From the NCBI GenBank assembly GCA_964016885.1, contig OZ024744.1:14384001-14448000 (forward strand): a stretch of 64,000 nt of DNA, in the 5' to 3' direction. The translations under genes and the position numbers were made by a program. The notes under the pieces are model-generated. The model was not told the DNA's origin, did not search any database, and worked only from the letters and a program-made list of their open reading frames with translations. Source of the stretch: Eledone cirrhosa. Its lineage: Eukaryota. Position 1 is the first letter of the stretch. Each line of letters starts with the position of its first letter. Positions 9,001 to 60,225 of the stretch are shown here, in pieces.

Positions 9001-12000
9001 GTTGTGACTTGATGTCAATAGTTGCACTGTAATCCCACCAGGATAGAAGCCCCATACTAATCTATGTTGTGACTTGATGTCAATAGTTTCCCTGTGATCC
9101 TACCAGGATAGAAGCCCCATACTATTCTATGTTGTGACTTGATGTCAATAGTTTCCCTGTGATCCTACCAGGATAGAAGCCCCATACTATTCTATGTTGT
9201 GACTTGATGTCAATAGTTGCACTGTGATCCCACCAGGATAGAAGCCCCATACTAATCTCTGTATGTTGTGACTTGATGTCAATAGTTTCCCTGTGATCCC
9301 ACCAGGATAGAAGCCCCATACTAATCACTGTATGTTGTGACTTGATGTCAATAGTTTCCCTGTGATCCCACCAGGATAGAAGCCCCATACTAATCTATGT
9401 ATGTTGTGACTTGATGTCAATAGTTTCCCTGTGATCCCACCAGGATAGAAGCCCCATACTAATCTATGTTGTGACTTGATGTCAATAGTTGCACTGTGAT
9501 CCCACCAGGGTAGAAGCCCCATACTAATCTCTGTATGTTGTGACTTGATGTCAATAGTTTCCCTGTGATCCCACCAGGGTGGAAGCACCATACTAATCGC
9601 TGTTGTGACTTGAAGTTCAATAGTTGCACTGTGATCCCACCAGGGTAGAAGCCCCATACTAATCTATGTTGTGACTTGATGTCAATAGTTGCACTGTGAT
9701 CCCCCCAGGATAGATGCCCCATACTAATCTATGTTGTGACTTTATGTCAATAGTTTCCCTGTGATCCCACCAGGATAGAAGCCCCATACTATTCTATGTT
9801 ATGACTTGATGTCAATAGTTGCACTGTGATCCCACCAGGATAGAAGCCCCTTACTAATCTATGTTATGACTTGATGTCAATAGTTTCCCTGTGATCTCAC
9901 CAGGATAGAAGCCCGATACTAATCCATGTTGTGACTTGATGTCAATAGTTGCACTGTGATCCCACCAGGATAGAAGCCCCATACTAATCTATGTTGTGAC
10001 TTGATGTCAATAGTTGCACTGTGATCCCACCAGGATAGAAGCCCCATACTATTCTATGTTGTGACTTGATGTCAATAGTTGCACTGTGATCCCACCAGGA
10101 TAGAAGCCCTATACTATTCTATGTTGTGACTTGATGTCAATAGTTTCCCTGTGATCCCACCAGGATAGAAGCCCCATACTAATCTATGTTGTGACTTGAT
10201 GTCAATAGTTTCCCTGTGATCCCACCAGGATAGAAGCCCCATACTAATCTATGTTGTGACTTGATGTCAATAGTTTCCCTGTGATACCACCAGGATAGAA
10301 GCCCCATACTAATCTATGTTGTGACTTGATGTCAATAGTTTCACTGTGATCCCACCAGGATAGAAGCCCCATAATAATCTATGTTGTGACTTGATGTCAA
10401 TAGTTGCACTGTGATCCCACCAGGATAGAAGCCCCATACTAATCTATGTTGTGACTTGATGTCAATAGTTGCACTGTGATCCCACCAGGATAGAAGCCCC
10501 ATACTAATCTATGTTGTGACTTGATGTCAATAGTTGCACTGTGATCCCACCAGGATAGAAGCCCCATACTATTCTATGTTGTGACTTGATGTCAATAGTT
10601 GCCCTGTGATCCCACCAGGATAGAAGCCCCGTACTAATCTATGTATGTTGTGACTTGATGTCAATAGTTTCCCTGTGATCCCACCAGGATAGAAGCCCCA
10701 TACTAATCTCTGTATGTTGTGACTTGATGTCAATAGTTGCACTGTGATCCCACCAGGATAGAAGCCCCATACTATTCTATGTTGTGACTTGATGTCAATA
10801 GTTTCCCTGTGATCCCACCAGGGTAGAAGCCCCATACTAATCTATGTTGTGACTTGATGTCAATAGTTGCACTGTGATCCCACCAGGATAGAAGCCCCAT
10901 ACTAATCTATGTTGTGACTTGATGTCAATAGTTTCCCTGTGATCCCACCAGGATAGAAGCCCCATACTATTCTATGTTGTGACTTGATGTCAATAGTTTC
11001 CCTGTGATCCCACGAGGGGAGAAGCCCCATACTAATCTATGTTGTGACTTGATGTCAATAGTTTCCCTGTGATTCCACCAGGATAGAAGCCCCATACTAA
11101 TTTATGTTGTGACTTGATGTCAATAGTTTCCCTGTGATCCCACCAGGATAGAAGCCCCATACTATTCTATGTTGTGACTTGATGTCAATAGTTTCCCTGT
11201 GATCCCGCCAGGATAGAAGCCCCATACTATTCTATGTTGTGACTTGATGTCAATAGTTTCCCTGTGATCCCACCAGGATAGAAGCCCCATACTAATCTAT
11301 GTTGTGACTTGATGTCAATAGTTGCACTGTGATCCCACCAGGGTAGAAGCCCCATACTAATCTATGTTGTGACTTGATGTCAATAGTTGCACTGTGATCC
11401 CACCAGGATAGAAGCCCCATACTAATCTATGTTATGACTTGATGTCAATAGTTTCCCTGTGATCCCACCAGAATAGAAGCCACATACTATTCTATGTTAT
11501 GACTTGATGGCAATAGTTTCCCTGTGATCCCACCAGGATAGATGCCCCATACTAATCTATGTTGTGACTTGATGTCAATAGTTGCCCTGTGATCCCACCA
11601 GGATAGAAGCCCCATTCTAATCTAGGTATGTTGTGACTTGATGTCAATAGTTGCACTGTGATCCCACCAGGATAGAAGCCCCATACTAATCTATGTTGTG
11701 ACTTAATGTCAATAGTTTCCCTGTGATCCCACCAGGATAGAAGCCCCATACTAATCTATGTTGTGACTTGATGTCAATAGTTTCCCTGTGATCCCACCAG
11801 GATAGAAGCCCCATACTAATCTATGTTGTGACTTGATGTCAATAGTTGCACTGTGATCCCACCAGGATAGAAGCCCCATACTAATCTATGTTGTGACTTG
11901 ATGTCAATAGTTTCCCTGTGATCCTACCAGGATAGAAGCCCCATACTATTCTATGTTGTGACTTGATGTCAATAGTTGCCCTGTGATCCCACCAGGGTAG

Positions 12001-15000
12001 AAGCCCCATACTAATCTCTGTATGTTGTGACTTGATTTCAATAGTTTCCCTGTGATCCCACCAGGATAGAAGCCCCATACTAATCTATGTATGTTGTGAC
12101 TTGATGTCAATAGTTTCCCTGTGATCCCACCAGGATAGAAGCCCCATACTAATCTATGTATGTTGTGACTTGATGTCAATAGTTGCACTATGATCCCATC
12201 AGGATAGAAGCCCCATACTATTCTATGTTGTGACTTGATGTCAATAGTTTCCCTGTGATCCCACCAGGGTAGAAGCCCCATACTAATCTATGTTGTGACT
12301 TGATGTCAATAGTTGCACTGTGATCCCACCAGGATAGAAGCCCCATACTAATCTATGTTGTGACTTGATGTCAATAGTTTCCCTGTGATCCCACCAGGAT
12401 AGAAGCCCCATACTATTCTATGTTGTGACTTGATGTCAATAGTTTCCCTGTGATCCCACCAGGGTACAAGCCCCATACTAATCTATGTTGTGACTTGATG
12501 TCAATAGTTTCCCTGTGATCCCACCAGGATAGAAGCCCCATACTAATCTATGTTGTGACTTGATGTCAATAGTTTCCCTGTGATCCCACCAGGATAGAAG
12601 CCCCATACTATTCTATGTTGTGACTTGATGTCAATAGTTTCCCTGTGATCCCACCAGGATAGAAGCCCCATACTAATCTATGTTGTGACTTGATGTCAAT
12701 AGTTGCACTGTGATCCCACCAGGCTAGAAGCCCCATACTAATCTATGTTGTGACTTGATGTCAATAGTTGCACTGTGATCCCACCAGGATAGAAGCCCCA
12801 TACTAATCTATGTTATGACTTGATGTCAATAGTTTCCCTGTGATCCCACCAGGATAGAAGCCCCATACTATTCTATGTTATGACTTGATGTCAATAGTTT
12901 CCCTGTGATCCCACCAGGATAGAAGCCCCATACTAATCTATGTTGTGACTTGATGTCAATAGTTTCCCTGTGATCCCACCAGGATAGAAGCCCCATGCTA
13001 TTCTATGTTGTGACTTGATGTCAATAGTTGCCCTGTGATCCCACCAGGATAGAAGCCCCATACTAATCTATGTATGTTGTGACTTGATGTCAATAGTTGC
13101 ACTGTGATCCCACCAGGATAGAAGCCCCATACTAATCTCTGTATGTTGTGACTTGATGTCAATAGTTTCCCTGTGATCCCACCAGGATAGAAGCCCCATA
13201 CTAATCTATGTTGTGACTTGATGTCAATAGTTGCACTGTGATCCCACCAGGATAGATGCCCCATACTAATCTATGTTATGACTTGATGTCAATAGTTTCC
13301 CTGTGATCCCACCAGGATAGAAGCCCCATACTAATCTATGTTATGACTTGATGTCAATAGTTTCCCTGTGATCCCACCAGGATAGAAGCCCCATACTAAT
13401 CTATGTTATGACTTGATGTCAATAGTTTCCCTGTGATCCCACCAGGATAGAAGCCCCATACTAATTTATGTTGTGACTTGATGTCAATAGTTTCCCTGTG
13501 ATCCCACCAGGATAGAAGCCCCATACTAATCTATGTTATGACTTGATGTCAATAGTTTCCCTGTGATCCCACCAGGATAGAAGCCCCATACTAATCTATG
13601 TTATGACTTGATGTCAATAGTTTCCCTGTGATCCCACCAGGATAGAAGCCCCATACTAATCTATGTTGTGACTTGATGTCAATAGTTGCACTGTGATCCC
13701 ACCAGGATAGAAGCCCCATACTAATCTATGTTGTGACTTGATGTCAATAGTTGCACTGTGATCCCACCAGGATAGAAGCCCCATACTAATCTATGTTGTG
13801 ACTTGATGTCAATAGTTTCCCTGTGATCCCACCAGGATAGAAGCCCCATACTATTCTATGTTGTGACTTGATGTCAATAGTTTCCCTGTGATCCCACCAG
13901 GATAGAAGCCCCATACTATTCTATGTTGTGACTTGATGTCAATAGTCTCCCTGTGATCCCACCAGGATAGAAGCCCCATACTAATCTATGTTGTAACTTG
14001 CTGTCAATAGTTGCACTGTGATCCCACCAGGGTAGAAGCCCCATACTAATCTATGTTGTGACTTGATGTCAATAGTTGCACTGTGATCCCACCAGGATAG
14101 AAGCCCCATACTAATCTATGTTATGACTTGATGTCAATAGTTTCCCTGTGATCCCACCAGGATAGAAGCCCCATACTATTCTATGTTATGACTTGATGTC
14201 AATAGTTTCCCTGTGATCCCACCAGGATAGAAGCCCTATACTAATCTATGTTGTGACTTGATGTCAATAGTTTCCCTGTGATCCCACCAGGATAGAAGCC
14301 CCATACTATTCTATGTTGTGACCTGATGTCAATAGTTGCCCTGTGATCCCACCAGGGTAGAAGCCCCATACTAATCTCTGTATGTTGTGACTTGATGTCA
14401 ATAGTTTCCCTGTGATCCCACCAGGATAGAAGCCCCATACTAATCTATGTATGTTGTGACTTGATGTCAATAGTTGCACTGTGATCCCACCAGGATAAAA
14501 GCCCCATACTAATCTATGTTGTGACTTGATGTCAATAGTTTCCCTGTGATCCCACCAGGATAGAAGCCCCATACTAATCTATGTTGTGACTTGATGTTAA
14601 TAGTTTCCCTGTGATCCCACCAGGATAGAAGCCCCATACTAATCTATGTTGTGACTTGATGTCAATAGTTGCACTGTGATCCCACCAGGATAGAAGCTCC
14701 ATACTAATCTATGTTGTGACTTGATGTCAATAGTTTCCCTGTGATCCTACCAGGATAGAAGCCCCATACTATTCTATGTTGTGACTTGATGTCAATAGTT
14801 GCCCTGTGATCCCACCAGGGTAGAAGCCCCATACTAATCTCTGTATGTTGTGACTTGATGTCAATAGTTTCCCTGTGATCCCACCAGGATAGAAGCCCCA
14901 TACTAATCTATGTTGTGACTTGATGTCAATAGTTTCCCTGTGATCCCACCAGGATAGAAGCCCCATACTAATCTATGTTATGACTTGATGTCAATAGTTT

Positions 15001-18000
15001 ACCTGTGATCCCACCAGGATAGAAGCCCCATACTAATCTATGTTATGACTTGATGTCAATAGTTTCCCTGTGATCCCACCAGGATAGAAGCCCCATACTA
15101 ATCTATGTTGTGACTTGATGTCAATAGTTGCACTGTGATCCCACCAGGATAGAAGCCCCATACTAATCTATGTATGTTGTGACTTGATGTCAATAGTTGC
15201 ACTGTGATCCCACCAGGATAGAAGCCCCATACTAATCTATGTTGTGACTTGATGTCAATAGTTTCCCTGTGATCCCACCAGGATAGAAGCCCCATACTAT
15301 TCTATGTTGTGACTTGATGTCAATAGTTTCCCTGTGATCCCACCAGGATAGAAGCCCCATACTATTCTATGTTGTGACTTGATGTCAATAGTCTCCCTGT
15401 GATCCCACCAGGATAGAAGCCCCATACTAATCTATGTTGTAACTTGCTGTCAATAGTTGCACTGTGATCCCACCAGGGTAGAAGCCCCATACTAATCTAT
15501 GTTGTGACTTGATGTCAATAGTTGCACTGTGATCCCACCAGGATAGAAGCCCCATACTAATCTATGTTATGACTTGATGTCAATAGTTTCCCTGTGATCC
15601 CACCAGGATAGAAGCCCCATACTATTCTATGTTATGACTTGATGTCAATAGTTTCCCTGTGATCCCACCAGGATAGAAGCCCTATACTAATCTATGTTGT
15701 GACTTGATGTCAATAGTTTCCCTGTGATCCCACCAGGATAGAAGCCCCATACTATTCTATGTTGTGACTTGATGTCAATAGTTGCCCTGTGATCCCACCA
15801 GGGTATAAGCCCCATACTAATCTCTGTATGTTGTGACTTGATGTCAATAGTTTCCCTGTGATCCCACCAGGATAGAAGCCCCATACTAATCTATGTATGT
15901 TGTGACTTGATGTCAATAGTTGCACTGTGATCCCACCAGGATAAAAGCCCCATACTAATCTATGTTGTGACTTGATGTCAATAGTTTCCCTGTGATCCCA
16001 CCAGGATAGAAGCCCCATACTAATCTATGTTGTGACTTGATGTCAATAGTTGCACTGTGATCCCACCAGGATAGAAGCTCCATACTAATCTATGTTGTGA
16101 CTTGATGTCAATAGTTTCCCTGTGATCCTACCAGGATAGAAGCCCCATACTATTCTATGTTGTGACTTGATGTCAATAGTTGCCCTGTGATCCCACCAGG
16201 GTAGAAGCCCCATACTAATCTCTGTATGTTGTGACTTGATGTCAATAGTTTCCCTGTGATCCCACCAGGATAGAAGCCCCATACTAATCTATGTATGTTG
16301 TGACTTGATGTCGATAGTTTCCATGTGATCCCACCAGGATAGAAGCCCCATACTAATCTATGTATGTTGTGACTTGATGTCAATAGTTGCACTGTGATCC
16401 CACCAGGATAGAAGCCCCATACTATTCTATGTTGTGACTTGATGTCAATAGTTTCCCTGTGATCCCACCAGGGTAGAAGCCCCATACTAATCTATGTTGT
16501 GACTTGATGTCAATAGTTGCACTGTGATCCCACCAGGATAGAAGCCCCATACTAATCTATGTTGTGACTTGATGTCAATAGTTTCCCTGTGATCCCACCA
16601 GGATAGAAGCCCTATACTATTCTATGTTGTGACTTGATGTCAATAGTTTCCCTGTGATCCCACCAGGATAGAAGCCCCATACTATTCTATGTTGTGACTT
16701 GATGTCAATAGTTTCCCTGTGATCCCACCAGGATAGAAGCCCCATACTATTCTATGTTGTGACTTGATGTCAATAGTTTCCCTGTGATCCCACCAGGATA
16801 GAAGCCCCATGCTAATCTATGTTGTGACTTGATGTCAATAGTTTCCCTGTGATCCCACCAGGATAGAAGCCCCATACTATTCTATGTTGTGACTTGATGT
16901 CAATAGTTTCCCTGTGATCCCACCAGGATAGAAGCCCCATACTATTCTATATTGTGACTTGATGTCAATAGTTTCCCTGTGATCCCACCTGGATAGAAGC
17001 CCCATACTAATCTATGTTGTGACTTGATGTCAATAGTTGCACTGTGATCCCACCAGGGTAGAAGCCCCATACTAATCTATGTTGTGACTTGATGTCAATA
17101 GTTGCACTGTGATCCCACCAGGATAGAAGCCCCATACTAATCTATGTTGTGACTTGATGTCAATAGTTGCACTGTGATCCCACCAGGATAGAAACCCCAT
17201 ACTATTCTATGTTGTGACTTGATGTCAATAGTTGCACTGTGATCCCACCAGGATAGAAGCCCCATACTATTCTATGTTGTGACTTGATGTCAATAGTTTC
17301 CCTGTGATCCCACCAGGATAGAAGCCCCATACTAATCTATGTTATGACTTGATGTCAATAGTTTCCCTGTGATCCCACCAGGATAGAAGCCCCATACTAA
17401 TCTATGTTGTGACTTGATGTCAATAGTTTCCCTGTGATCCCACCAGGATGGAAGCCCCATACTATTCTATGTTGTGACCTGATGTCAATAGTTGCCCTGT
17501 GATCCCACCAGGGTATAAGCCCCATACTAATCTCTGTATGTTGTGACTTGATGTCAATAGTTTCCCTGTGATCCCACCAGGATAGAAGCCCCATACTAAT
17601 CTATGTATGTTGTGACTTGATGTCAATAGTTGCACTGTGATCCCACCAGGATAGAAGCCCCATACTAATCTCTGTATGTTGTGACTTGATGTCAATAGTT
17701 TCCCTGTGATCCCACCAGGATAGAAGCCCCATACTAATCTATGTTATGACTTGATGTCAATAGTTTCCCTGTGATCCCACCAGGATAGAAGCCCCATACT
17801 ATTCTATGTTATGACTTGATGTCAATAGTTTCCCTGTGATCCCACCAGGATAGAAGCCCCATACTAATCTATGTTGTGACTTGATGTCAATAGTTGCACT
17901 GTGATCCCACCAGGATAGAAGCCCCATACTAATCTATGTTGTGACTTGATGTCAATAGTTGCACTGTGATCCCACCTGGATAGAAGCCCCATACTAATCT

Positions 18001-18880
18001 CTGTATGTTGTGACTTGATGTCAATAGTTGCACTGTGATCCCACCAGGATAGAAGCCCCATACTAATCTATGTTGTGACTTGATGTCAATAGTTTCCCTG
18101 TGATCCTACCAGGATAGAAGCCCCATACTATTCTATGTTGTGACTTGATGTCAATAGTTTCCCTGTGATCCTACCAGGATAGAAGCCCCATACTATTCTA
18201 TGTTGTGACTTGATGTTAATAGTTGCACTGTGATCCCACCAGGATAGAAGCCCCATACTAATCTCTGTATGTTGTGACTTGATGTCAATAGTTTCCCTGT
18301 GATCCCACCAGGATAGAAGCCCCATACTAATCTATGTATGTTGTGACTTGATGTCAATAGTTTCCCTGTGATCCCACCAGGATAGAAGCCCCATACTAAT
18401 CTATGTTGTGACTTGATGTCAATAGTTGCACTGTGATCCCACCAGGATAGAAGCCCCATACTAATCTATGTTGTGACTTGATGTCAATAGTTACACTGTG
18501 ATCCCACCAGGATAGAAGCCCCATACTAATCTCTATATGTTGTGACTTGATGTCAATAGTTGCACTGTGATCCTACCAGGATAGAAGCCCTATACTATTC
18601 TATGTTGTGACTTGATGTCAATAGTTTCCCTGTGATCCCACCAGGATAGAAGCCCCATACTAATCTATGTTGTGACTTGATGTCAATAGTTGCACTGTGA
18701 TCCCACCAGGATAGAAGCCCTATACTATTCTACGTTGTGACTTGATGTCAATAGTTGCACTGTGATCCCCCCAGGATAGAAGCCCCATACTATTCTATGT
18801 TGTGACTTGATGTCAATAGTTTCCCTGTGATCCCACCAGGATAGAAGCCCCATACTAATCTATGTTGTGACTTGATGTCA
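1..18880. repeat. Satellite A: 65-bp tandem repeat (69-bp variant with a 4-nt insertion), ~290 monomers, open at the left window edge
   Basis: Consensus read directly: ATGTCAATAGTT(TCC/GCA/GCC)CTGTGATCCCACCAGG(A/G)TAGAAGCCCCATACTA(A/T)TCTATGTT(G/A)TGACTTG = 65 nt. The 69-mers carry CTATGTATGTTG or CTCTGTATGTTG. The array ends abruptly at ...GACTTGATGTCA|TGTAAAC (18880). Confidence 0.99.
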
Positions 18881-46124: not shown

Positions 46125-46183
46125 GGAATGATGTGTTCCTGTGATGTTATATAATCTATAACATCAGAGGAACACATCATTCC
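46125..46183. other. Fold-back inverted repeat (27-bp arms, 5-nt loop, 1 mismatch) at the satellite C/D junction
   Basis: GGAATGATGTGTTCCTGTGATGTTATA (46125-46151) - TAATC - TATAACATCAGAGGAACACATCATTCC (46157-46183). The arms are reverse complements except at one position. Confidence 0.93.
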
Positions 46184-47556
46184 TATTATATAATCTCTAA
46201 AATATATTGACCACATCATTCCTATTATATAATCTATAACATCTCTTGAACACTTAATCCATATTATATAATCACTAACATATCCTTAACACATCATTCC
46301 TATTATATAATCTATAACATCACAGGAGCACATCATTCCTATTATATAATCTATAAAATCTCTTGAGCACATCATACCTATCATATAATCTCTAAAATAT
46401 CTTTAACACATCATTCCTATTATATAATCTATAACACCTCTTGAACACATCATACCTATTATATAATTTATAACACCTCTTGAATACATCATTCCTATTA
46501 TATAATATATATAATCTCTTGAACACATCATACATTTTATATAATCTATAAAATCTCTTGAACACATCATTCCTATTATATAATCTATAACATCTCTTGA
46601 ACACATCATACCTATTATATAATCTATAACACCTCTTGAACACATCATTCCTATTATATAATCTATCACATCTTTTCACAACATTCCTATTATATAATCT
46701 TTAACATCTCTTGAACACATCATTCCTTTTATATAATCTATAACATCTGTTCAACACATCATTCCTTTTATATAATCTATAACATCTCTTGAATACAGCA
46801 TTCCTATTATATAATCTATAACATCTCTTGGAAACATCATTCCTATTATATAATATATAACATCACAGGAACACATCATTCCTATTATATAATCTTTAAC
46901 ATATCTTGAATACATCACTCCTATTATATAATATATAACATCACAGGAACATATCATTGCTATTATATAATCTTTAACATACCTTGAACACATCACTCCT
47001 ATTATATAATATATAACATGACAGGAACACATCATTCCTATTATATAATCTTTAACATATCTTGAACACATCACTCCTATTATATAATCCATCACATCTC
47101 TTCACATGATTCCTATTATATAATCTATATCATCTCTTGAACACATCATTCCTATTATATAATCTATAACATATCTTGAACACATCATTACTATTATACA
47201 ATCTATAACATATCTTGAACACACCATTCCTATTATATAATTTATAACATCTCATGAACACATCAATCCTATTATATAATCTATAAAATCTCTTGAGCAC
47301 ATCATACCTATTATATAATCTATAAAATATCTTTAACACATCATTCCTATTATATAATCTATAACACCTCTTGAACACATCATAACTATTATATAATCTA
47401 TAACACCTCTTAAATACATCATTCCTATTATATAATATATATCATCTCTTGAACACATCATACATATTATATAATGTATAACATCTCTTCAACACATCAT
47501 TCCTATTATATAATATATAACATCTCATGAACACATCATTCCTTTTATATAATATA

Positions 47557-48045
47557 CTAGCATTAAAGCCCGGCGTTGCTCGAGGTCAGTAAGTTACCAA
47601 AGTTAGGTTGCACCACCCATTGTATGGCAGGACTTATTTGTCTGGCAGGCACTGGGGAATGAATTGCAGACCTGGACTGCCGAAGCAGGAGCTGCACCAG
47701 CAGTGACAATTGTAGTTTCGCCTATGGATATTATCTCTGTGCAAGAGCATTTCACACTCAATAACATACGTTCTCTTTCCCTCTCTCTCTCCCTCTGAAA
47801 GTTTAACCGAAGTATAGAGAGGTGATCAGATGCTATTAGAGGGGTAAAGTGCCATGTATTTAGTTTTATCGATTATTTCCGTAATTGGGGGGGAGTGTGA
47901 ATGGAATAATTAGTCGATGACCTATGTAAGACCATTTACAACATTCCTCCAGACGTTGAGTCGAATCGGTGTGACATTGTGCAAATGTATAAATATGGAA
48001 CAGGCACACACACACACACAACAACAACAATCTGTCATTTATAGG
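47557..48045 (-). mobile_element. Non-autonomous Helitron copy 1 (internal ~380-bp deletion)
   Basis: Minus-strand 3' end CCTCGAGCAACGCCGGG-CTTTAATG-CTAG|T (GC hairpin + CTAG). The 5' end is (C)CTATAAATGACAGATTG(TTG)n(TG)n. It lacks the central part seen in the other copies (junction GTGCAA|GAGCATTT ~47743). Confidence 0.8.
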
Positions 48046-49057
48046 TAATAATATATCTCTTGAGCACATCATTCCTATTATATAATCTATAAAATATCTT
48101 TAGCACATCATACCTATTATATACTCTTTAACACCGCTTGAACACGTCATTCCTATTATATAATCTATAACCTCTCTTCAACTCATCATTCCTATTATAT
48201 AATCTATATCATCTCTTGAAGACATCGTTCATATTTTATAATATATAACATCTCTTAAACACATCATTCATATTATATAATCTATAACATCTCTTGAACA
48301 CATAATTCCTATTATATAATATATAACATCTCTTAAACATATCATTCCTATTATATAATCTATAACATCTCTTGAACACATCATACCTATTATATAATCT
48401 ATAACATTTCTTGAACACATCATTCCTATTATATAATCTATAACATCTCTTAAACACATCATTCCTATTATATAATCTATAACATCTATTGAGCAGATCA
48501 TTCCTAATATATAATCTATAACATCTCTTCAACACATCAGTCCTATAATATAATCTATAACACCCTTGAACACATCATTCCCATTATATAATCTATAACA
48601 TCTCTTGTACACATCATTCCTATTATATAATCTATAACATCTCTTAAACACATCATTCCTATTATATAATCTATAACATCTATTGAGCAGATCATTCCTA
48701 ATATATAATCTATAACATCTCTTCACATCATTCCTATTATATAATCTATCACATCTCTTCACATCATTCCTATTATATAATCTATAACATCTCTTGTACA
48801 CATCATTCCTATTATATAATCTATAATATCAGAGGAACACATCATTCATATTATGTAATCTCTAAAATATCTTGAGCACATCATTTCTATTATATAATCT
48901 ATAACATGTCTTCAACACATCATTCCTATTATCTAATCTATAACATCTCTTCAACATATCATTCCTATTATATAATCTATAAAATATCTTGAGCACATTA
49001 TTCCTATTATATAATATATAACATCTCTTGAACACATCATTCCTTTTATATAATATA

Positions 49058-49672
49058 CTAGCATTAAAGCCCGGCGTTGCTCGGGGTCAGTAAGTTACCA
49101 ACGTTATGTTGCACCACCCATTTTATGGCAGCACTTTTTTGTTGGAAGGCACTGGGTGAATGAATTGCAGACCTGGACTTCCGAAGCAGGAGCTGTGCCA
49201 GCAGTGACAATTGTAGTTTCGCCTATGGACATTATCTCTGTGCAAAGAAGAGTTGAAATTTATTGTTTCACATTACTTACGCAACGCGCGCATAGACGAT
49301 GCCAGCCGAACAACAGAGCTGCGATGGAGTTGTTCTGCATGGTTGTCTAATGTGTGTTTTCTAAATTTAAGACAGTAGGGAGGGGTGTGATATGGGGGAG
49401 AGTTAGCTGCTGTTTCTAGCAGGTTTAGTGATCTCATAGAGGATATTATTGTATATAGTAAATGAACTGATGCTTCTTTCTTCCACATTCGTTGATAGAT
49501 GTTCTAAAAAAGATTTGTCACTATTTTTTTGTTGTTGAATAAATTTATCTGTTGCTTTTGAATAATTGTTGTTTTGTAAGAAAAGTATTAAGTTCTCTTT
49601 GTCATTGAAGTAAATAAATATTTGACCGATCCACACCCAATAACAACCGTTCTGTCTCCCCCTCTCTCCCTC

Positions 49673-49707
<35 letters not shown>

Positions 49708-49952
49708 GTTTAAGGGGAGTAGAGAGAGGTAATCAGATTGTACTAGATGGGTAAAGCGCCATGTATTAAGTTTTATCGATTATTTCCGTAATGCTGAATG
49801 AGTGTGAATGAAATAAATAGTCGGTTACCTATGTAAGAGCATTTACAACATTCTTACAGACGTTGATTCGAATCGGTTTGAAATTGTGCAAATGTATAAA
49901 AATGGAACATGCACACACACACACACAACAACAACAATCTGCCTTTTATAGA
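49058..49952 (-). mobile_element. Non-autonomous Helitron copy 2 (subtype B)
   Basis: Minus strand: A|TCTATAAAAGGCAGATTG(TTG)n(TG)n ... CCCGAGCAACGCCGGG-CTTTAATG-CTAG|T. It has the canonical Helitron 5'-TC, 3' hairpin, CTAG and A|T flanks, with no TSD or TIR. Confidence 0.87.
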
Positions 49953-51124
49953 TAATGATAACATCTCTTCAGCACATCATTCCTATTATATAATCTATAA
50001 CCAGTCTTCAACACATCATTCCTATTATAAAATATATAACATCTCTTAACACATCATTCCTATTATATAATCTATAATATCTCTTGAACACATCATTCCT
50101 ATTATATAATCTATAACATCTCTTGAACACATCATTCCTAATATATAATCTATCACATCTCTTCACTTCATTCCTGTTATATAATCTATAACATATCATG
50201 AGCACATCATTCCTATTATATAACCCATAACACCTCTTGAACACATCATTCCTATTATATAATCTATAACATCTCTTGAACACATCATTCCTATTATATA
50301 ATCTATAACATATCTTGAACACATCATTCCTATTATGTAATATATAAGATCTCTTCAACACATCATTCCTATTATATAATCCCTAACATCTCTACAACAC
50401 ATCATTCCTATTATATAATATATAACATCTCTTCACTACATCATTCCGATTATATAATCAATAACATCTCTTGAACACATCATTTTTATTATATAATCTA
50501 TAACATCTCTTCATCACATCATTCATATTATATAATCTATAACATCTCTTCAACATATCAGTCTTATTATATAATCTATAACACCTCTTGAACACATCAT
50601 TCCTATTATATAATACATAAGATCTCTTGCGCACATCATTCCTATTATATAATCTATATCACCTCTTGAACACATCATTCCTATTAAATATCCTATAACA
50701 CCTCTTGAACACATCATTCCTATTATATAATCTATAACATCTCTTGAGCACATCATTCCTATTATATAATCTATAACATCTCTTGAACACATCAATCCTA
50801 TTATATAATCTATAACATCTCTTGAGCACACCATTTCTATTATATAATCTATAACATCTCTTGAGCACACCATTTCTATTATATAATCTATAACATCTCT
50901 TGAAAACATCATTACTATTATATAATCTATATCATCTCTTCAATACATCATTCCTATTATATAATCTCTAAAATATCTTGAGCACATCATTCCTATTATA
51001 TAATCTATATCATCTCTTCAACACATCATTACTATTATACAATCTATAACATCCCTTGAACACATCGTTCCTATTATATAATCTATAACATCTTATGAAC
51101 ACATCATTACTATTATATAATATA

Positions 51125-52013
51125 CTAGCATTAAAGCCCGGCGTTGCTCGGGGTCAGTAAGTTACCAAAGTTTGGTTGCACCACCCATTTTATGGCAGCA
51201 CTTTTTTGTCTGGCAGGCACTAGGTGAATGGATTGCAGACCTGGACTGCCGAAGCAGGAGCTGCGCCAGCAGTGACAATTGTAGTTTGGCCTATGGATAT
51301 TATCTCTGTGGAAAGAAGTATTGAAATTTATTGTTTCACAGTACTTTCACAACACATGCATAGACGATGCCAGCCGGACAACAGAGCGGCGATGGTGTTG
51401 TTCTGCATGGTTGTCTAATGTGTGTTTTCTAAGTTTAAGACAGTTGGGAGGGGTGTTATATTGGGGAGAGTTAGCTGCTGTTTCTAGCAGGTTTAGTGAC
51501 CTCATAGAGGATATTATTGTGTATAGTAAATGATCTGATGCTTCTTTCTTCCACGTTCGTTGATAGATGTTATAAAAAAGATTTATCGCTATTTTTTTGT
51601 TGTTGAATAAATTTATCTTTTGCTTTTGAATAATTGTTGTTTGGTAAGAAATGTAATAAGTTCTCTTTGTCATTGAATTTAATATATGTTTGAGCATTTC
51701 ACACTCAATAACATACGTTCTCTCGCCCCCTATCTCCCCCCTCTCACTCTCTCTCTCTCTCTCTTAGAGTTTAAGGGGAGTAGAGAGAGGTGATCAGATT
51801 CTATTAGAGGGTTAAAGTGCCATGTATTTAGTTTTATCGATTATTTCCGTAATTGTGGGGGAGTGTGAATGAAATAATTAGTCGGTAACCTATGTAAGAC
51901 CATTCACAACATGCTTACAGACGTTGAGTCGAATCGGTGTTAGATTGTGCAAATGTATAAAAATGGAACATGCACACACACACGCACAACAACAACAATC
52001 TGCCTTTTATAGA
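51125..52013 (-). mobile_element. Non-autonomous Helitron copy 3 (subtype A)
   Basis: Same termini as copy 2 (plus strand CTAGCATTAAAGCCCGGCGTTGCTCGGG ... TGCCTTTTATAGA); colinear over its full length. Confidence 0.87.
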
Positions 52014-53337
52014 TAATAATAACATCTCATGGGCACATCATTCCTATTATATAATCTATACAATATCTTGAGCACATCATTCCTATTATATAATCTCTAA
52101 AATATATTCAACACATCATTCCTATTATATAATCTATAACCTCTCTTCAACACATCATTCCTATTATATAATAAATAACATCACTTAAACATATTATTCA
52201 TATTATATAATCTATAACATCTCTTGAACACATCATTCCTATTATATAATATATAACATCTCTTGAACACATCATTCCTATTATATAATCTATAACATCT
52301 CTTGAACATATCATTCCTATTATATAATCTATAACATTTCTTGAACACATCATTCCTATTATTAAATCTATACCATCCCTTGAACACATAATTCCTATTA
52401 TATAATCTATAATATCAGATGAACACATCCTTCCTATTATGTAATCTCTAAAGTTTCTTGAGCACATTATTCCTATTATATAATGTATAACACCAGTTGA
52501 ACACATCATTCCTATTATATAATCTATAACACCTCTTGAACCCATCATTCCTATTATATAATCTATAACGCATCTTGGGCACATCATTCCTATTATAAAA
52601 TCTATAACATCTCTTGAGAACATCATTCCTATTATATAATCCCTAAAATATCCTTAACACATCATTTCTATTATATAATATATAACATCTCTTGAACACA
52701 TCATTCCTATTATATAATCTATAACATCTCTTGAGCACATCATTCCTATTATATAATCTATAACATCTCTTTAACACATCATTCCTATTATATAATATAT
52801 AACATCTCTTAAACACATCATTCCTATTATATAATCTATAACATCTCTTGAACACATCATTCCTATTATATAATCTATAACATCTCTTGAACACATCATT
52901 CCTATTATATAATCTATAACATCTCTTGAACACATCATTCCTATTATATAATCTATAACATCTCTTCAACACATCATTCCTATTATATAATCTATAACAG
53001 CTCTTGAACACATCATTCCTATTATATAATTTATAACATCTCTTGAACACTTCATTAATATTACATAACATCACATGAACACATCATTCCTATTATATAA
53101 TCTATAACATCTCTTGAGCACATCATTCCTATTATATAATCTATAACATCTCTTGAACACATATTCCTATTATATAATCTATAATATCAGATGAACACAT
53201 CAATCCTATTATGTAATCTCTAAAATATCTTGAGAACATCATTCCTATTATATAATCTATATCATCATTTCAACACATCATTCCTATTATATAATCTATA
53301 ACATCTCATGAACACATCATTACTATTATATAATATA

Positions 53338-54225
53338 CTAGCATTAAACCCGGCGTTGCTCGGGGTCAGTAAGTTACCAATGTTAGGTTGCACCACACAT
53401 TTTATGGCAGCACTTTTTTGTTTTGAAGGCACTGGGTGAATGAATTGCAGACCTGGACTGCTGAAGCAGGAGCTGTGCCAGCAGTGGCAATTGTAGTTTC
53501 GCCTATGGACATTATCTCTGTGCAAAGAAGTGTTGAAATTTATTGTTTCACAATACTTGCGCAACACGCGCACAGACGATGCCAGCCAAACAACAGAGCT
53601 GCGATGGAGTTGTTCTGCATGGTTGTCTAATGTGTGTTTTTTAAATTTAAGACAGTAGGGAGGGGTGTGATATGGGGGAGAATTAGCTGCAGTTTCTAGC
53701 AAGTTTAGTGACCTCATAGAGGATATTATTTTGTATAGTAAATGAACTGATACTTCTTTCTTCTACGTTCGTTGATAGATGTTTTAAAAAAGATTTATCG
53801 CTTTTTTTTGTTGTTGAATATATTTATCTGTTGCGTTTGAATAATTGTTGATTCGTATGAAATGTAATAAGTTCTCTTTGTCATTGAAGTAAATAAATGT
53901 TTGACCGTTCCACACCCAATAACAAACGTTGTCTCTCCCTCCCTCTCTCCCTCTCACTCACTCTCTCTCTCATAAAGTTTAAGGGGAGTAGAGAGAGGTA
54001 ATCAGATTGTATTAGATGGGTGAAGCGCCATCTATTTAGTTTTATCGATTTTCTCCGTAATTGTGGGGGAGTGTGAATGAAATAAATAGTCGGTTACCTA
54101 TGTAAGACCATTTAGAACATTCTTACAGACTTTGAGTCGAATCGGTTTGAAATTGTGCAAATGTAAAAAAATGGAACATACACACACACGCACAACAACA
54201 ACAACAACAATCTGCCTTTTATAGA
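53338..54225 (-). mobile_element. Non-autonomous Helitron copy 4 (subtype B)
   Basis: Same termini. Shares GGACATT, TTGACCG, GGTAATCAG, AATCGGTTTGAAA and the right flank GATAATGATAAC with copy 2. Confidence 0.87.
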
Positions 54226-55354
54226 TAATGATAACATCTCTTCGGCACATAGTTCCTATTATATAATCTATTACACCTCTTGAACACGTCATTCCTATTA
54301 TATAATGTATAACATCTCTTGAACACATAATTCCTATTATAAAATCTATAACCTCTCTTTAACACATCATTCCTATTATATAATCTATAACATCTTTTGA
54401 ACACATCGTTCCTATTATATAATCTATAACATCAGATGAACACAGCATTCCTATTATTTAATCTCTAAAATATCTTGAGCACATTATTCCTATTATATAA
54501 TCTATAACATCTCTTGAACACATCATTCCTATTATATAATATATAACATCTCATGAGCACATCATTCCTATTATATAATCTATAACACCTCTTGAACACA
54601 TCATTCCTATTATATAATCTGTAACACCTCTTGAACACATCATTCCTATTATATAATCTATATCATCTCTTCACATCGTTCCTATTATATAATCTATAAT
54701 ATCTCTTGAGCAGATCATTCCTATTATAGAGTCCCTAAAATATCCTAACACATCATTCCTATTATATAATCTATAACATCACGGGAACACATCATTCCTA
54801 TTATATAATCTATAACATCTCTTCAACACATCAGTCCTATAATATAATCTATAACACCCTTGAACACATCATTCCCATTATATAATATATAACATCACAG
54901 TAACACATGATTCCTATTATGTAATCTATAACTTCTCTTGAACACATCATTCATATTATATAATCTATAACATCTCTTCAACACATCATTCCTATTATAT
55001 AATCTATAACATATCTTGAACACATCACGCCTATTATATAATTCATAACATCACATGAACACATCATTCCTATTCTATAATCTTCAACATATCTTGAACA
55101 CATCACTCCTATTATATAATCCATCACATCTCTTCACATGATTCCTATTATATAATATATAACATATCTTGAACACATCATTACTATTATATAATCTATA
55201 ACATTTCTTCAACACATCATTCCTATTATATAATCTATAACATATCTTGAACACATCATTACTATTATACAATCTATAACACCTCTTGAACACATCATTC
55301 CTATTATATAATCTATAACATCTCATGAACACATCATTCCTATTATATAATATA

Positions 55355-56220
55355 CTAGCATTAAAGCCCGGCGTTGCTCGGAGTCAGTAAGTTTCCAAAG
55401 TTAGGTTGCACCACCCATTTTATGGCAGCAAGTTTTTGTCTGGCAGGCACTGGGTGAAAGAATTGCAGACCTAGACAGCCGAAGCAGGATCTGCGCCAGC
55501 AGTGACAATTGTAGTTTCGCCTATGGATATTATCTCTGCAAAGAAGTCGTTGATATTTATTGTTTCACAGTACTTTCGCAACACGCGCATAGACGATGCC
55601 AGCCGAACAACAGAGCTGCGATGGAGTTGTTCTGCATGGTTGTCTAATGTGTGTTTTCTAAGTTTAAGACAGTAGGGAGGGGTGTTTATATTGGGGAGAG
55701 TTAGCTGCTGTTTCTAGCAGGTGTAGTGACCTCATAGAGGATATTATTGTGTCTAGTAAATGATCTGATGCTTCCTTCTTCCACGTTCGTTGATAGATGT
55801 TTTAAAAAAGATTTATCGCTATTTTTTTGTTGTTGAATAAATTTATCTTTTGCTTTTGAATAATTGTTGTTTCGTATGAAATGTAATAAGTTCTCTTTGT
55901 CATTGAAGTAAATAAATGTTTGAGCATTTCACACTCAATAACATAGGTTCTCTGTCCCTCTCTCTCCCTCTTAAAGTTTAAGGGGAGTAGAGAGAGGTGA
56001 TCAGATTCTATTAGAGGTTTAAAGCGCCATGTATTTAGTTTTATCGATTATTTCCGTAATTGTGTGGGAGTGTGAATGAAATAATTAGTCGTTGATCTAT
56101 ATAAGTCCATTCACAACATTCTTACAGACGTTGAGTCTAATAGGTCTCAGATTGTGCAAATGTATAAAAATGGAACATGCACACACACACGCACAACAAC
56201 AACAATCTGTCTTTTATAGA
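55355..56220 (-). mobile_element. Non-autonomous Helitron copy 5 (subtype A)
   Basis: Same termini. Shares GGATATT, TGAGCATTTC and GGTGATCAG with copies 1 and 3. Confidence 0.87.
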
Positions 56221-56993
56221 TAATAATAACATCTCATGAGCACATCATTCCTATTATATAATCTATAACACCTATTGAACACATCATTCCTATTATATAA
56301 TCTATAACCACTCTTCAACACATTATTCCTATTATATAATCTGTATCATCTCTTGAACACATCATTCCTATTATATAATCTATAACATCTCTTAAACACA
56401 TCATTCCTATTATATAATCTATAACATCTCTTGAAAACATCATTCCTATTATATAATCTATAACATCTCTTGAACACTTCATTACTATTACATAACATCA
56501 CATGAAAACATCATTCCTATTATATACTATATAACATCTCTTGAACACATCATTCCTATTATATAATATATAACATCTCTTGAACACATCATTCCTATTA
56601 TATAATGTATAACATCTCTTGAGCACATCATTGCTAATATATAATCTATCACATCTCTTTACATAATTCCGATTATATAATCTATAACATATCTTGAACA
56701 CATCATTCCTATTATATAATCGATCACATCTATTCACATGATTCCTGTTATATAATCTATAACATATCTTGAACACATCATTCCTATTATATAATATATA
56801 ACATCACATGAACACATCATTCCTATTATATAATCTATAATATCAGATGAACACATCATTCCTATTATGTAATCTATAACAACTCTTGAACACATCATTC
56901 CTATTATATAATTTATAACATCACATGAACACATCATTCCTATTATATAATCTATAACATCTCATGAACACATCATTCCTATTATACAATATA

Positions 56994-57952
56994 CTAGCAT
57001 TAAAGCCCGGCGTTGCTCGGGGTCAGTAAGTTACCAAAGTTAGGTTACACCACCCATTTTATGGCAGCACTTTTTTGTCTGGCAGGCACTGGGTGAATGA
57101 ATTGCAGACCTGGACTGCCGAAGCAGGAGCTGCGCCAGCAGTGACAATTATAGTTTCGCCTATGGATATTATTTCTGTGCAAAGAAGTGTCGAAATTTAT
57201 TGTTTCACAGTACTTGCGCAACACGCGCATAGACGATGCCAGCCAAACAACAGATCTGCGAAGGAGTTGTTCTGCATGGTTCTCTAATGTGTGTTTTCTA
57301 AATTTAAGACAGTATGGAGGGGTGTCAAATGGGGGAGAGTTAGCTGCTGTTTCTAGCAGGTTTAGTGACCTCATAGAGGATATGTTTTCTAAATTTAAGA
57401 TAGTAGGGAGTGGTGTGATATGGGGGAGAGTTAGTTGCTGTTTCTAGAAGGTTTAGTGACCTCATAGAGGACATTATTGTGTATAGTAAATGATATGATG
57501 CTTCTTTCTTCCACGTTCGTTGATAGATGTTTTAAAAAAGATTTATCGCTATTTTTTTGTTGTTGAATAAACTTATCTGTTGCTTTTGAATAATTGTTGT
57601 TTCGTATGAAATGTTATAAGTTCTTTTTGACATTGAAGTAAATAAATGTTTGAGCGTTCCACACTCAATAACATACGTTCTCTCTCCCTCTCTCTCCCTC
57701 TTAAAGTTTAAGGGGAGTAGAGAGAGGTGATCAGATGGTATTAGAGGGGTAAACGCCATGTATTGAGTTTTAAATATTTGTTCCGTAATTGGGGGGGGGG
57801 GAGTGTGAATGAAATAATTAGTCGTTAACCTATGTACGGCCATTTACAACATTCTTACAGACGTTGAGTCTAATCGGTGTGAGATTGTGCAAATGTATAA
57901 AAAAGGAACATGCACACACACACAACAACAACAACAATCTGCCTTTTATAGC
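56994..57952 (-). mobile_element. Non-autonomous Helitron copy 6 (subtype A, internal ~91-bp tandem duplication)
   Basis: Same 3' hairpin and CTAG. The segment TGTTTTCTAAATTTAAGA...CATAGAGGA occurs twice (from 57292 and from 57383). The 5' terminus is slightly degenerate (TTTTATAGCC). Confidence 0.85.
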
Positions 57953-58108
57953 CAATAACATCTCTTGAGCACATCATTCCTATTATATAATCTATCACAT
58001 CTCTTCACATCATTCCTATTATATAATCTATAACACCTCTTGAACACATCATTCCTATTATATAATCTATAACATCTCTTGAACACATCATTCCTTTTAT
58101 ATAATATA

Positions 58109-58705
58109 CTAGCATTAAAGTCCGGCGTTGCTCGGGGTCAGTAAGTTTCAAAAGTTAGGTTGCATCACCCATTTTATAGCAGCACTTAATTGTCTGGCAG
58201 GCACTGGGTGAATGAATTGCAGACCTGGACTGCCGAAGCAGGAGTTGTGCCAGCAGTGGCAATTGTAGTTTCGCCTATGGACATTATCTCTGTGCAAGAA
58301 GTGTTGAAATTTATTGTTTCACAGTACTTGCGTAACACGCGCATAGACGATGCCAGCCGAACAACAGAGCTGCGATGGAGTTGTTCTGCATGGTTGTCTA
58401 ATGTGTGTTTTCTCAATTTAAGACAGTAGGGAGGGCTATGATATGGGGGAGAGTTAGCTGCTGTTTCTAGCAGGTTTAGTGACCTCATAGAGGATATTAT
58501 TGTGTATAGTAAATGAACTGATGCTTCTTTCTTCCACGTTCGTTGATAGATGTTTTAAAAAAGATTTATTGCTATCTTTTTGTTGTTGAATATATTTATC
58601 TGTAGCTTTTGAATATGGGGTAGAGTTAGGTGCTGTTTCTAGCAGGTTTATTGACATCATAGAGGATATGTTTTCTAAATTTAAGACAGTAGGGAGTGGT
58701 GTGAT
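58109..58705 (-). mobile_element. Non-autonomous Helitron copy 7, 5'-truncated and rearranged, fused to a LINE
   Basis: The 3' end CTAGCATTAAAGTCCGGCGTTGCTCGGG is present. It is colinear to ~58613, jumps back to an internal segment, then ends at GGTGTGAT|GAAGAAG. Confidence 0.82.
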
Positions 58706-60225
58706 GAAGAAGTGCAATATCATCTGCAATGTCAAGGTCAATGTGCCTAGAGCTCATGCAGGGTTTGATGGTTTTACCTTTTTTATTGATTTTGTCAATT
58801 GAGAATCTCAGGGTGTAATCTAGTGCAATGATAAAGAGGAATGGAAAAAGAGTGTCACCCTGCAGCACACCTGCTGAGATGTCAAAGAACTCTGTTTGGC
58901 CATCAAGGGTGGTGATAGCATCACTTGTGTTGAGATACAGAGCCTTACTTGTTTCCACAAGTCTTGCTGGTATACCATACCAGAGTAGAATTTCAAACAA
59001 AAACTAGAGCCATTTGTCTGTTGGTGTTTCTCATCTCCCCCACTTTTCTTCTCAAGGCCAAAATCTGTGCAAGTGTAGATCTACCATGCCCAAAACCATT
59101 TTGGTTGATGCAAAGGATTGGATCAACATACGGAACTATACGGTTGAGGATTAGCTTGTTGTAGATCTTGGCAGCAATGGTCATAAATGATATTCCTCGG
59201 TAGTTTTGGGGGGGATGAGAGGTGACCCTTTTTGGGGACAGACACTATTCCTGCTTTTAACCAACTCATTGGAGGAGTTTTGTTGCTTAAGGTGGCGTTG
59301 CAGATTGATAATAGGACTGAAGTAAGGTTTGGGTCTTTCCAAATTATACTGGGTATATTGTTGAGACTGGGTGATTTTTTGTTTTCACCTGGTTGATCTC
59401 ACTCAAGGTGAAAGTCCAGTGGAGATGTTGAGTTCAGGTGATAGACTTTGAGGGATCGCCTTCTACAGGGGATGGTTTGCCCAGTAGACCCTTGAAGTGG
59501 TCTGTCCACCTCTTTTTCCTAGCTTCTTCAGAGCCTCCTTTTATGATGGGTGAAGGTTTCTCTTTTCTGCCAGTTATTTCGTTGACTAGATCCCATGCAG
59601 CTGCGTGCTTTTTGTTTATATGGAGGGTCTTAAGTTTGCTTATTTTTCCTTCTACATTCTCAGCAAGAGCAGTTGTGTACCCCTCATCAAGGTCTTTTTT
59701 GCATTGGGTAATTTCACTTTTCAGTAAACTAGTTGGATTTGAGTTGTACTGAGAAAAAAGACTTTGCAATTTTTTGCGGACTGAGGATACTAAGATATGT
59801 GAGCTCAATTTCATGAGCTCTTTGTCTTTTTGGGTAAGCTGGAAAGAGCAACTTCCTCATTTGCAACAATTAGGTTGGAGTATTTAATCTCAATGCAATC
59901 ATCAGTACAGGATAGTTTAGAGAACCTATTGTAGACACTGATTTGAATACCAGCTGGAGAGCTCCATATTTGATGACACTAACCTTCAGTCAATTTGTTT
60001 TATAGGCTCAGCAGGAACTTTCTTAGGAGTGCGAAGGCTAAGAGTAACTTTGGAAGAGACACTCCTGTGATCAGATCCAACGCGAAGGAGGAATAGGTTT
60101 CAGTCGCGTACACTGTTTTGCCATTTTTTTCCGAAATAGGATATAATCCAATTGAGCTCTATTCCCATTAAGGTAGATGGATGACCAGAGTTTGGATTCC
60201 TTTTTCATGAAGCTATTTTTATTTT
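58706..60225 (-). mobile_element. Degenerate non-LTR retrotransposon (LINE, RTE-like) fragment: C-terminal APE endonuclease + N-terminal RT; pseudogenised
   Basis: Minus-strand translation gives APE motifs NSFMKKESKLWS..NGNRAQLDYILFRKKWQNSV and GSDH (60060-60220), linker WDLVNEITGRK..RWTDHFKGLL, and RT motifs AAKIYNKLILNRI, QNGF..GRSTLAQILALRR, YGIP, GVLQGDTLFPFLFII, DIADDIALL. There are several frameshifts and stops. The clade call is from memory of motifs, not a search. Confidence 0.92.

Follow-up and report, generated by a model that had tools for sequence, protein, structure and literature searches.

Seven in-phase copies of a non-autonomous Helitron in a single-locus 39-bp minisatellite of Eledone cirrhosa, most likely multiplied in place after one insertion

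Structure of the array

The window analysed, a 64,000-nucleotide stretch of Eledone cirrhosa contig OZ024744.1 (positions 14,384,001 to 14,448,000), contains a plus-strand 39-bp minisatellite interrupted by seven minus-strand copies of a Helitron, designated W1 to W7. The array begins with a fold-back (46125..46183, unstranded), in which a 27-bp inverted monomer piece is joined at a palindromic TTATATAA core, and which as a DNA hairpin scores -26.9 kcal/mol (z -9.9). Minisatellite block B0 (46147..47556; 36 monomers of 39 bp plus a 12-nt stub) is followed by W1 (47557..48051), a 495-bp copy of subtype B with a ~400-bp internal deletion, a 5' TT and a 3' CTAG. Block B1 (48052..49057, 26 monomers) separates it from W2 (49058..49958, 901 bp, subtype A), which runs from 5'-TCATTATC to CTAG-3', and block B2 (49959..51124, 30 monomers) leads to W3 (51125..52019, 895 bp, 5' TT, subtype B). 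Beyond block B3 (52020..53337, 34 monomers) lies W4 (53338..54231, 894 bp, subtype A) with an intact 5'-TC, and beyond block B4 (54232..55354, 29 monomers) lies W5 (55355..56226, 872 bp, 5' TT, subtype B). Block B5 (56227..56993, 20 monomers) precedes W6 (56994..57955, ~962 bp, subtype B), in which the 5' end is altered and an internal 91-bp repeat of the family is present twice. Finally, block B6 (57956..58108, 4 monomers) precedes W7 (58109..58705, 597 bp, subtype A), which lacks the 5' part and retains an internal-duplication junction. The order of subtypes from W1 to W7 is therefore B-A-B-A-B-B-A. The CTAG 3' ends lie on the minus strand at 47557, 49058, 51125, 53338, 55355, 56994 and 58109, and in all seven copies the plus strand directly before CTAG reads ...ATAATATA or ...ACAATATA. 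A preliminary description had reported seven minus-strand copies at one phase of the 39-mer, together with the numbers of monomers between them, and both were reproduced; its element size of about 0.9 kb held for W2 to W6 but not for the shorter W1 and W7.

W7 adjoins a broken LINE-like reverse-transcriptase fragment (58706..59860, minus strand), which matched a Pfam RVT_1 protein by BLASTP (E 2e-6), the 99-aa piece itself giving no match in Pfam. The reverse-transcriptase domain is severed where W7 adjoins it, a likely deletion junction terminating the array. No coding potential was seen in the reading frames of the array, which are repeat translations or short. Identity between the seven copies reaches only 86-93%, so that collapse or duplication in the assembly does not account for the array. 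In public run X3, possibly from the same sample, both satellite flanks of W3 were covered and a 148-bp contig was identical to W3.

The minisatellite and its confinement to the locus

A 35-nt pattern spanning the satellite-CTAG junction matched seven times in 3.0 Gb, each time at this locus, while its reversed control had no match in the same 3.0 Gb, so that the arrangement is not a product of chance. The 39-mer itself matched 118 times, in every case on the forward strand, and the matches listed, 100 in number, all lay in the array. A degenerate 39-mer pattern matched 37 times in the array and a further 33 times in a single 42-bp relative, located on C1; this repeat, ~79% like the 39-mer, was the only related one found elsewhere and contains no Helitron. 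In these searches the 39-mer proper and the satellite-CTAG junction are thus confined to the locus. The preliminary description had named a composite present only here, with the satellite occurring elsewhere free of the element, as the result that would reduce its proposal to one insertion plus ordinary tandem duplication. Essentially this result was obtained, the composite being restricted to one locus, with the caveat that what occurs elsewhere is the ~79% relative and not the 39-mer proper. In two further public runs (X1 and X2, with small word shares) the Helitron family was present and the 39-mer had no depth at 90% likeness, although these are contigs, which makes the absence uninformative; a fourth run (X4) is RAD-seq.

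The element belongs to a dispersed Helitron family

Matches to an internal motif numbered 1,072 genome-wide (~1,070 dispersed copies), and the element is a member of a non-autonomous Helitron1-type family that is dispersed and mostly solo. The family 3'-end pattern gave 4,715 matches, this end being common to other families too. The family termini are 5' TCATTATC and 3' ...TTTAATGCTAG. Among 52 sampled 5' ends, 33 read TCATTATC (28 right after A and 5 after an extra TCA); the other 19 comprised 8 of the form A/TTATC, 7 CTAG/TTATC joins and 4 others. The same CTAG, a CTRR-3' terminus, ends the dispersed copies with unrelated flanks, as had been expected of a Helitron, and these flanks begin with T in 61/61. 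When the element is taken out of the array, the two flanks join into one complete monomer, with A^T at the join and without target duplication. Of the 18 A^T sites that the variant monomer offers, the occupied one scores highest, at 5.1 bits with a matrix built from the 61 dispersed 3' flanks, and so best matches the target preference of the family. The Helitron assignment holds. CTAG is present in every array copy, 5'-TC survives in the array only in W2 and W4, and the subterminal hairpin, a 6-bp bulged stem 8 nt before CTAG, can be seen but is weak, being no stabler than shuffles (-4.1 kcal/mol, z -0.35).

None of the 69 dispersed loci checked (0/28 and 0/41) had the 39-mer nearby. Solo elements therefore exist, the satellite lies outside the Helitron termini as proposed, and carriage of the satellite on the element's 3' end, also considered, was ruled out by these loci and by the single-locus junction. 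Two features were likewise discarded as array-private markers: the 91-bp duplication of W6 and W7 belongs to the family at large, its junction having matched 2,228 times, and the rearranged junction of W7 was present in five dispersed copies. Direct head-to-tail joins within the family numbered 15 genome-wide, the spacer being zero in all 15. RepHel sequences abound in the genome, 150 having been scored among 3,704 candidates. No termini matching the family were found within ~10 kb of the 9 RepHel loci checked out of these 3,704 candidates, and no RepHel was found upstream of four atypical family 3' ends, so that these loci yielded no autonomous partner.

Common origin of the seven copies

Phylogenetic placement against 28 dispersed copies put all seven array copies in one clade (support 99/98), and a tree of the 5' part with 51 dispersed copies, from which 3 of 54 pieces had been dropped, recovered 6/6 (94/92). 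With the 3' 330 bp, for which 4 of 65 rows more than 20% divergent were dropped to leave 61, only six of the seven grouped together (94/89, bootstrap not settled), the 191-bp piece of W1 being placed with two divergent dispersed rows. Private mutations were also found. A two-base diagnostic had both changes together in array copies only (4 of 21 matches, the other 17 having one change only), a G>C change was present in 7/7 array copies and 0/61 dispersed copies, and an A>G change was common to W7, W2 and W4 and absent from all 61. Some sites conflict with the tree; W4, for instance, has the family letter where others are derived. A single long form of the family suffices, through internal collapse, to derive the structures of every copy from W2 to W7.

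Identity was 89.8% among array copies and 90.4% between array and dispersed copies. Compared with their dispersed siblings, the array copies show about twice the divergence, which may reflect either an older insertion or faster mutation. Their mutation spectrum was not special (transversion/transition/CpG 46/38/16 versus 169/169/62). The duplications fell early after insertion, the stem of the array clade measuring 0.013-0.024 and its tips 0.03-0.06.

G14 was found in the monomer after each 5' end in 6/6 cases versus 2/23 empty target sites (Fisher p 6e-5, with related monomers counted as independent), and A10 in 5/7 flanking monomers versus 1/23 empty sites (p 8e-4, with the same counting of related monomers). 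The proposal that the amplified unit was the Helitron plus adjacent satellite is borne out. Between 4 and 36 monomers long, the blocks between and before the copies vary in size and composition and are patchworks, and all end exactly in phase at ...GTTA without a new CTAG or terminator. A clean two-element higher-order repeat was only partly supported, as B2 and B4, its expected paralogues, were similar at only z 1.1, below B0-B4 (5.4) and B3-B4 (4.2). Diagonal runs between spacers numbered 21 against 13-17 in shuffles, a weak excess because single similar monomers persist through shuffling.

One insertion amplified in place

The array clade, the private mutations and the flanking variants rare at empty sites together point to a single insertion amplified in place. 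Whole-monomer junctions, variable patchwork spacers and the lack of spread elsewhere are best fitted by unequal crossover or conversion, the one of three routes offered in the preliminary description that is favoured here. We conclude with high confidence that a common non-autonomous Helitron entered a single-locus 39-bp minisatellite once, that all seven copies go back to this insertion, and that unequal crossover or gene conversion between the repeats most likely multiplied them where they stand. The founder would have inserted at the best-matching A^T site of the monomer, after which the monomers flanking it may have paired out of register and so duplicated the element plus flank; phase and strand would then be inherited automatically. 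Later exchanges would have duplicated larger pieces, giving the present subtype order, altered spacer lengths and shuffled monomer runs between spacers, while the internal duplications of the element collapsed differently from copy to copy. A final deletion would have joined the last copy to the LINE fragment. The enzyme behind the first duplication cannot be named from sequence alone, and no function is implied for the array.

It was also considered that the Helitron itself set off the expansion, RepHel nicking or 3' bypass causing an in-phase burst while the family was active. This would explain why the duplications came early and then stopped, and damage repair would account for the roughly twofold divergence, but we regard it as improbable. 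Another route is quite improbable, in which RepHel nicking or rolling-circle read-through, initiated by the transposase at the 5' end, ran past the 3' terminator and copied element and downstream satellite for local re-integration, recombination only reshuffling them later. Capture by 3' bypass and rolling-circle tandems are known in Helitrons (PMC12628747 and PMC13085455, in the portions available), and the weak hairpin, the early and then arrested duplications and the abundance of RepHel would suit this route. However, no composite copy lies away from the locus, and the spacers vary in length and content and end in phase without a terminator. Furthermore, every copy has its own 3' end, whereas a single 3' end combined with many 5' ends is frequent in the rolling-circle arrays reviewed (available part of PMC12628747), and the direct tandem joins of the family are spacer-free. 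Rolling-circle seeding of the satellite, which had been put forward as a way of spreading it, is thus largely refuted by a composite found at this locus only and by solo elements being the rule.

A mixed history, in which one founder was amplified by recombination but W1 or W7, or tracts of copies, were replaced by conversion from dispersed members, is very unlikely. The sharing of the W7 junction with five of the dispersed copies examined, the tree-conflicting sites and the position of W1 in the short 3' tree could be read in this way, but both W1 and W7 have the array-private G>C, W7 has in addition the private A>G that is found in W2 and W4, and W2 to W7 are derivable from one long form. 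Repeated independent insertion into a targeted A^T site is scarcely credible, for although the occupied site scores highest, the array copies are as distant from each other as from dispersed ones, and Helitrons likely target a repeat in Paramecium telomeres (PMC13085455, in the part available), it is refuted for no fewer than six copies by the clade, with its private mutations, and by the shared flanking haplotypes, and ~1,070 copies in 3 Gb predict far fewer than one copy in 12 kb.

On the reading of one insertion amplified in place, the array adds a neat Helitron case to a process already known, in which a transposon is carried along by unequal exchange in the repeat where it landed, and as such matters little. 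The seven copies are a record of the duplication history of the minisatellite, of modest use as a natural marker, and the ~1,070 dispersed siblings provide a clock for testing whether mutation is faster in the DNA of recombining arrays. Expansion driven by transposase would, if true, tie rolling-circle transposition directly to host satellite growth, but this is not where the evidence leads.

Comparison with known systems

The systems below are compared as described in the available portions of the cited sources. Non-autonomous Helitron1 elements have 5'-TC, CTRR-3', a subterminal hairpin and an A^T target without target site duplication (TSD) (PMC5148889, PMC13085455); the Eledone family matches them in 5'-TC, CTRR-3' and the A^T target without TSD, while its hairpin is no stabler than shuffles and its 5' ends differ in steps of TCA. 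Central tandem repeats are found in oyster Cg_HINE Helentrons (PMC7492417), and the Eledone family likewise has an internal tandem repeat of its own, the 91-bp unit. Unlike the satellites of Cg_HINE and DINE-1, however, the 39-mer is located beyond the termini and does not travel through the genome with the element, and the termini are of Helitron1 and not Helentron type. Plant rolling-circle tandem arrays (Xiong, Dooner and Du 2016, per PMC12628747) similarly consist of co-oriented Helitron copies, but in plants the copies are joined directly into concatemers, which frequently combine many 5' ends with a single 3' end, whereas here all seven 3' ends are present and the copies are 4-34 in-phase host monomers apart.

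In the openly accessible literature searched, no report was found of a Helitron multiplied in phase within a host minisatellite. The underlying sequence of events, a single integration followed by recombination copying within satellites, has already been described in print for Gypsy, LINE, retroviral and Alu copies. In the human Yq12 DYZ units with Alu, and in DYZ2/HSat1B, insertion into a repeat unit was followed by expansion and contraction with the array, for which slippage, NAHR or conversion was proposed (10.1101/2022.12.01.518658). Those arrays are of megabase scale and involve a retroelement, compared with a 12-kb array and a Helitron here, and DYZ2 is a composite monomer of fixed length, in contrast to spacers of 4-36 monomers. 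Comparable too are the Gypsy copies of Anoplius nigerrimus, the LINE copies of Porphyrio hochstetteri and the retroviruses of Cervus elaphus, multiplied in satellites after single integration (10.64898/2026.09.17.752431), for which the same conclusion was drawn of one integration and subsequent copying by recombination. The pattern of amplification after insertion is found in Eledone as well, the copies being monophyletic (with W1 outside in one short-fragment tree), on one strand, at one site and with common flanks. Here, however, the element is a non-autonomous Helitron without a TSD, for which reason variants of the flanking monomers were used as the insertion fingerprint, the host is a 12-kb single-locus minisatellite, and the copies, at 86-93% identity, are older.

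Seven Helitron copies within a 39-bp minisatellite

By its repeat annotation, the window (C28:14,384,001-14,448,000 in a 3.0-Gb genome) is made up of successive large tandem arrays, namely a 65-mer array (1-18880), a 92-mer array, a 36-mer array (20296-46122) and the 39-mer array (46147-58108). A putative SINE motif in the flanks may point to an octopod cephalopod. The neighbourhood (window positions 1-46122; L069; L070:440-10000) is a chain of long 65-, 92-, 36-, 23- and 41-mer arrays, with at least 29 kb of 65-mer, about 700 copies of the 36-mer and at least 9.5 kb of 41-mer, the unit of which presumably resembles a SINE/tRNA-derived fragment. The 39-mer array starts with a 27-bp fold-back at the palindromic core of the monomer, and the resulting near-perfect hairpin (46125-46183), at the boundary with the 36-mer array, probably arose by a template switch at that core. 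At the array end, the last Helitron adjoins a LINE-like reverse transcriptase (RT) fragment cut inside the RT domain, likely a deletion junction.

As the preliminary description had stated, the CTAG ends of seven minus-strand Helitron copies (W1-W7, left to right) break the 39-mer at one monomer position, and the blocks before and between them (B0-B6) count 36, 26, 30, 34, 29, 20 and 4 monomers. Its picture of seven ~0.9-kb Helitrons with complete termini required amendment: seven copies are present, but W1 measures 495 bp and W7, which has no 5' end, 597 bp; all seven end in CTAG, but the subterminal hairpin is weak and the 5'-TC is kept in W2 and W4 only. Pairwise identity among the copies was 86-93%. 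In sequencing run X3, which may derive from the source sample, both satellite flanks of W3 were covered and a 148-bp contig was identical to W3.

The Helitron family is dispersed and the satellite is not

On sequence grounds, the element is a member of a dispersed, non-autonomous Helitron1-type family. Across the 3.0 Gb searched, an internal 31-mer gave 1,072 matches at up to three mismatches (884 at up to one) and the 3'-terminal 26-mer gave 4,715, part of which are other families alike in the last ~31 bp only. Dispersed copies began with TCATTATC in 33/52 sampled, ended in CTAG followed by T in 61/61, and had flanks unrelated to one another; these termini match the Helitron1 features described in the available text of PMC5148889 and PMC13085455. 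Inside the element, the family has a 91-bp tandem repeat of its own (2,228 junction matches genome-wide), the familiar array-in-element arrangement (PMC7492417, available text). No autonomous partner was found near the 9 RepHel loci examined of 3,704 candidates.

Direct head-to-tail joins of the family numbered 15 genome-wide (L146-L157, e.g. G000:C1:73899389), all of CTAG to TTATC without a spacer and never of CTAG to TCATTATC (0/15), and the same join was present in runs X1, X3 and X4. The form of these joins, together with family 5' ends that occur as TTATC, TCATTATC and TCATCATTATC, suggests that the family may insert at an A^T lying three bases in from its own 5' terminus, which would grow by TCA steps. 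The family seems to have a narrower target than A^T alone: in many dispersed 3' flanks (L003-L114) the sequence is T-N5-6-ATAAA, which is similar to Helitron 5' ends, and some copies adjoin other Helitron-like ends (L005, L006, L085).

RepHel Helitron matches recurred every ~80-210 kb on one strand of contig C20 (3.54-5.19 Mb, at least 14 among the matches listed), and similarly on C27 (13.1-15.5 Mb), C19 (35.4-39.9 Mb) and C16 (0.54-0.80 Mb) (loci L126-L145, L176-L177, L182-L194), in DNA that is 95-99% identical from unit to unit and from contig to contig. One putative 79-kb unit held, besides RT fragments and many minisatellites, a RepHel interrupted by stops (Pfam Helitron_like_N and PIF1) and a short Cys-rich stretch, which we take to be an EGF-like motif and for which no Pfam match was obtained; no rRNA was found. 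The recurrences probably reflect a very large tandem repeat, segmental or of a gene family, in which the Helitron is a passenger.

The suggestion that the 39-mer is attached to the element's 3' end was not borne out, as it was absent within 1.5 kb of the 28 best-scoring dispersed copies (0/28) and of 41 further loci (0/41); solo elements are the rule. The satellite-CTAG junction had seven genome matches, all in this array, and the 39-mer pattern had 118, all on the forward strand, with 100/100 of those listed lying here. The sole relative found was a young 42-bp array on contig C1 (L068:5147-6564, G000:C1:426437147; 33.7 copies, 99% matches), ~79% alike to the 39-mer through either common origin or convergence, with no family element in the surrounding 10 kb. 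A degenerate pattern matched no dispersed seed sequence. By eye, both monomers are loosely like the Helitron 5' end.

Probable amplification in place

Where a copy is taken out, a complete monomer results, and every spacer thus closes in register and lacks a new terminator. Homologous exchange between monomers would yield such spacers, which read-through is not expected to do. Furthermore, subtype A (W2, W4, W7) alternates with subtype B (W1, W3, W5, W6) and the first flanking monomers split along the same lines, suggesting that two-element pieces may have been duplicated. The spacers are patchworks, not copies of one unit (similarity z of 5.4 for B0-B4, 4.2 for B3-B4, 3.1 for B1-B5, 3.0 for B1-B3 and only 1.1 for B2-B4). 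We consider it very likely that a single insertion was followed by unequal crossover or conversion; unequal crossover is the favoured one of the three routes first proposed. Duplication driven by the transposase is improbable, given the register of the spacers, the spacerless joins of the family and the form of reviewed rolling-circle arrays, in which a single 3' end commonly goes with numerous 5' ends (PMC12628747, available text); this array resembles neither the joins nor those arrays.

Evidence for a single insertion

All seven array copies formed a clade against 28 dispersed copies (support 99/98), as did, in a 5'-part tree, the six with a 5' part against 51 (94/92). As a counter-result, the last-330-bp tree grouped six array copies (94/89) and placed a 191-bp piece of W1 outside them, with two divergent rows. 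This placement would fit a mixed history including conversion from outside the array, which is slightly less probable still, as a G>C change was present in 7/7 array copies and 0/61 dispersed copies and the layouts of W2-W7 can all be traced to a single long form of the family whose internal duplications collapsed. A two-base diagnostic occurred together only in array copies (4/21 genome matches), the other 17 having one change. In comparisons of related, not independent, monomers, G14 was found after the 5' end in 6/6 cases versus 2/23 empty target sites, and A10 in the upstream monomer in 5/7 versus 1/23. As the array copies form a clade and have flanking-monomer variants in common, the sequences show that a Helitron landed once in the 39-mer array. 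By the family flank matrix, the occupied site ranks first among the 18 A^T sites that the variant monomer offers, which accounts for the founder's landing place; repeated targeting of this site, which the ranking would also suit, is the least probable account given the clade and common flanks.

Divergence from the family majority was 6.5-10.6% for array copies and 1.5-6.9% for the best-scoring dispersed copies, in samples that lean young but hold a few copies as diverged as those of the array (3' part, 3.3-6.1% versus a median of 1.8%; 5' part, 8.1-11.9% versus a median of 4.3%). Family-wide, the 3' internal motif gave ~2.5% per site by Poisson arithmetic on 884 of 1,072 matches. Because of this sampling and these diverged dispersed copies, and because the mutation spectrum is the same in both groups, an older insertion is sufficient to account for the difference; a roughly twofold faster local mutation rate may be an alternative source. 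The stem common to the array copies is short relative to the tips, and the duplications therefore came soon after insertion.

Comparison with known systems

Two candidate classes were rejected: a Helentron-borne satellite, as the 39-mer does not travel with the element, and a rolling-circle concatemer, from which the array differs in its spacers and ends. Literature searches found no Helitron example of in-array multiplication. The array falls in the class of transposons that integrated once into a tandem array and were then multiplied there. It is like the Gypsy, LINE and retrovirus copies multiplied in centromeric satellites after a single integration, as described in the available text of 10.64898/2026.09.17.752431, and like the Alu-containing DYZ units of the human Y, in which the element was multiplied with its tandem array (10.1101/2022.12.01.518658, available text). 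The process is already known, and the array adds a Helitron example to it.
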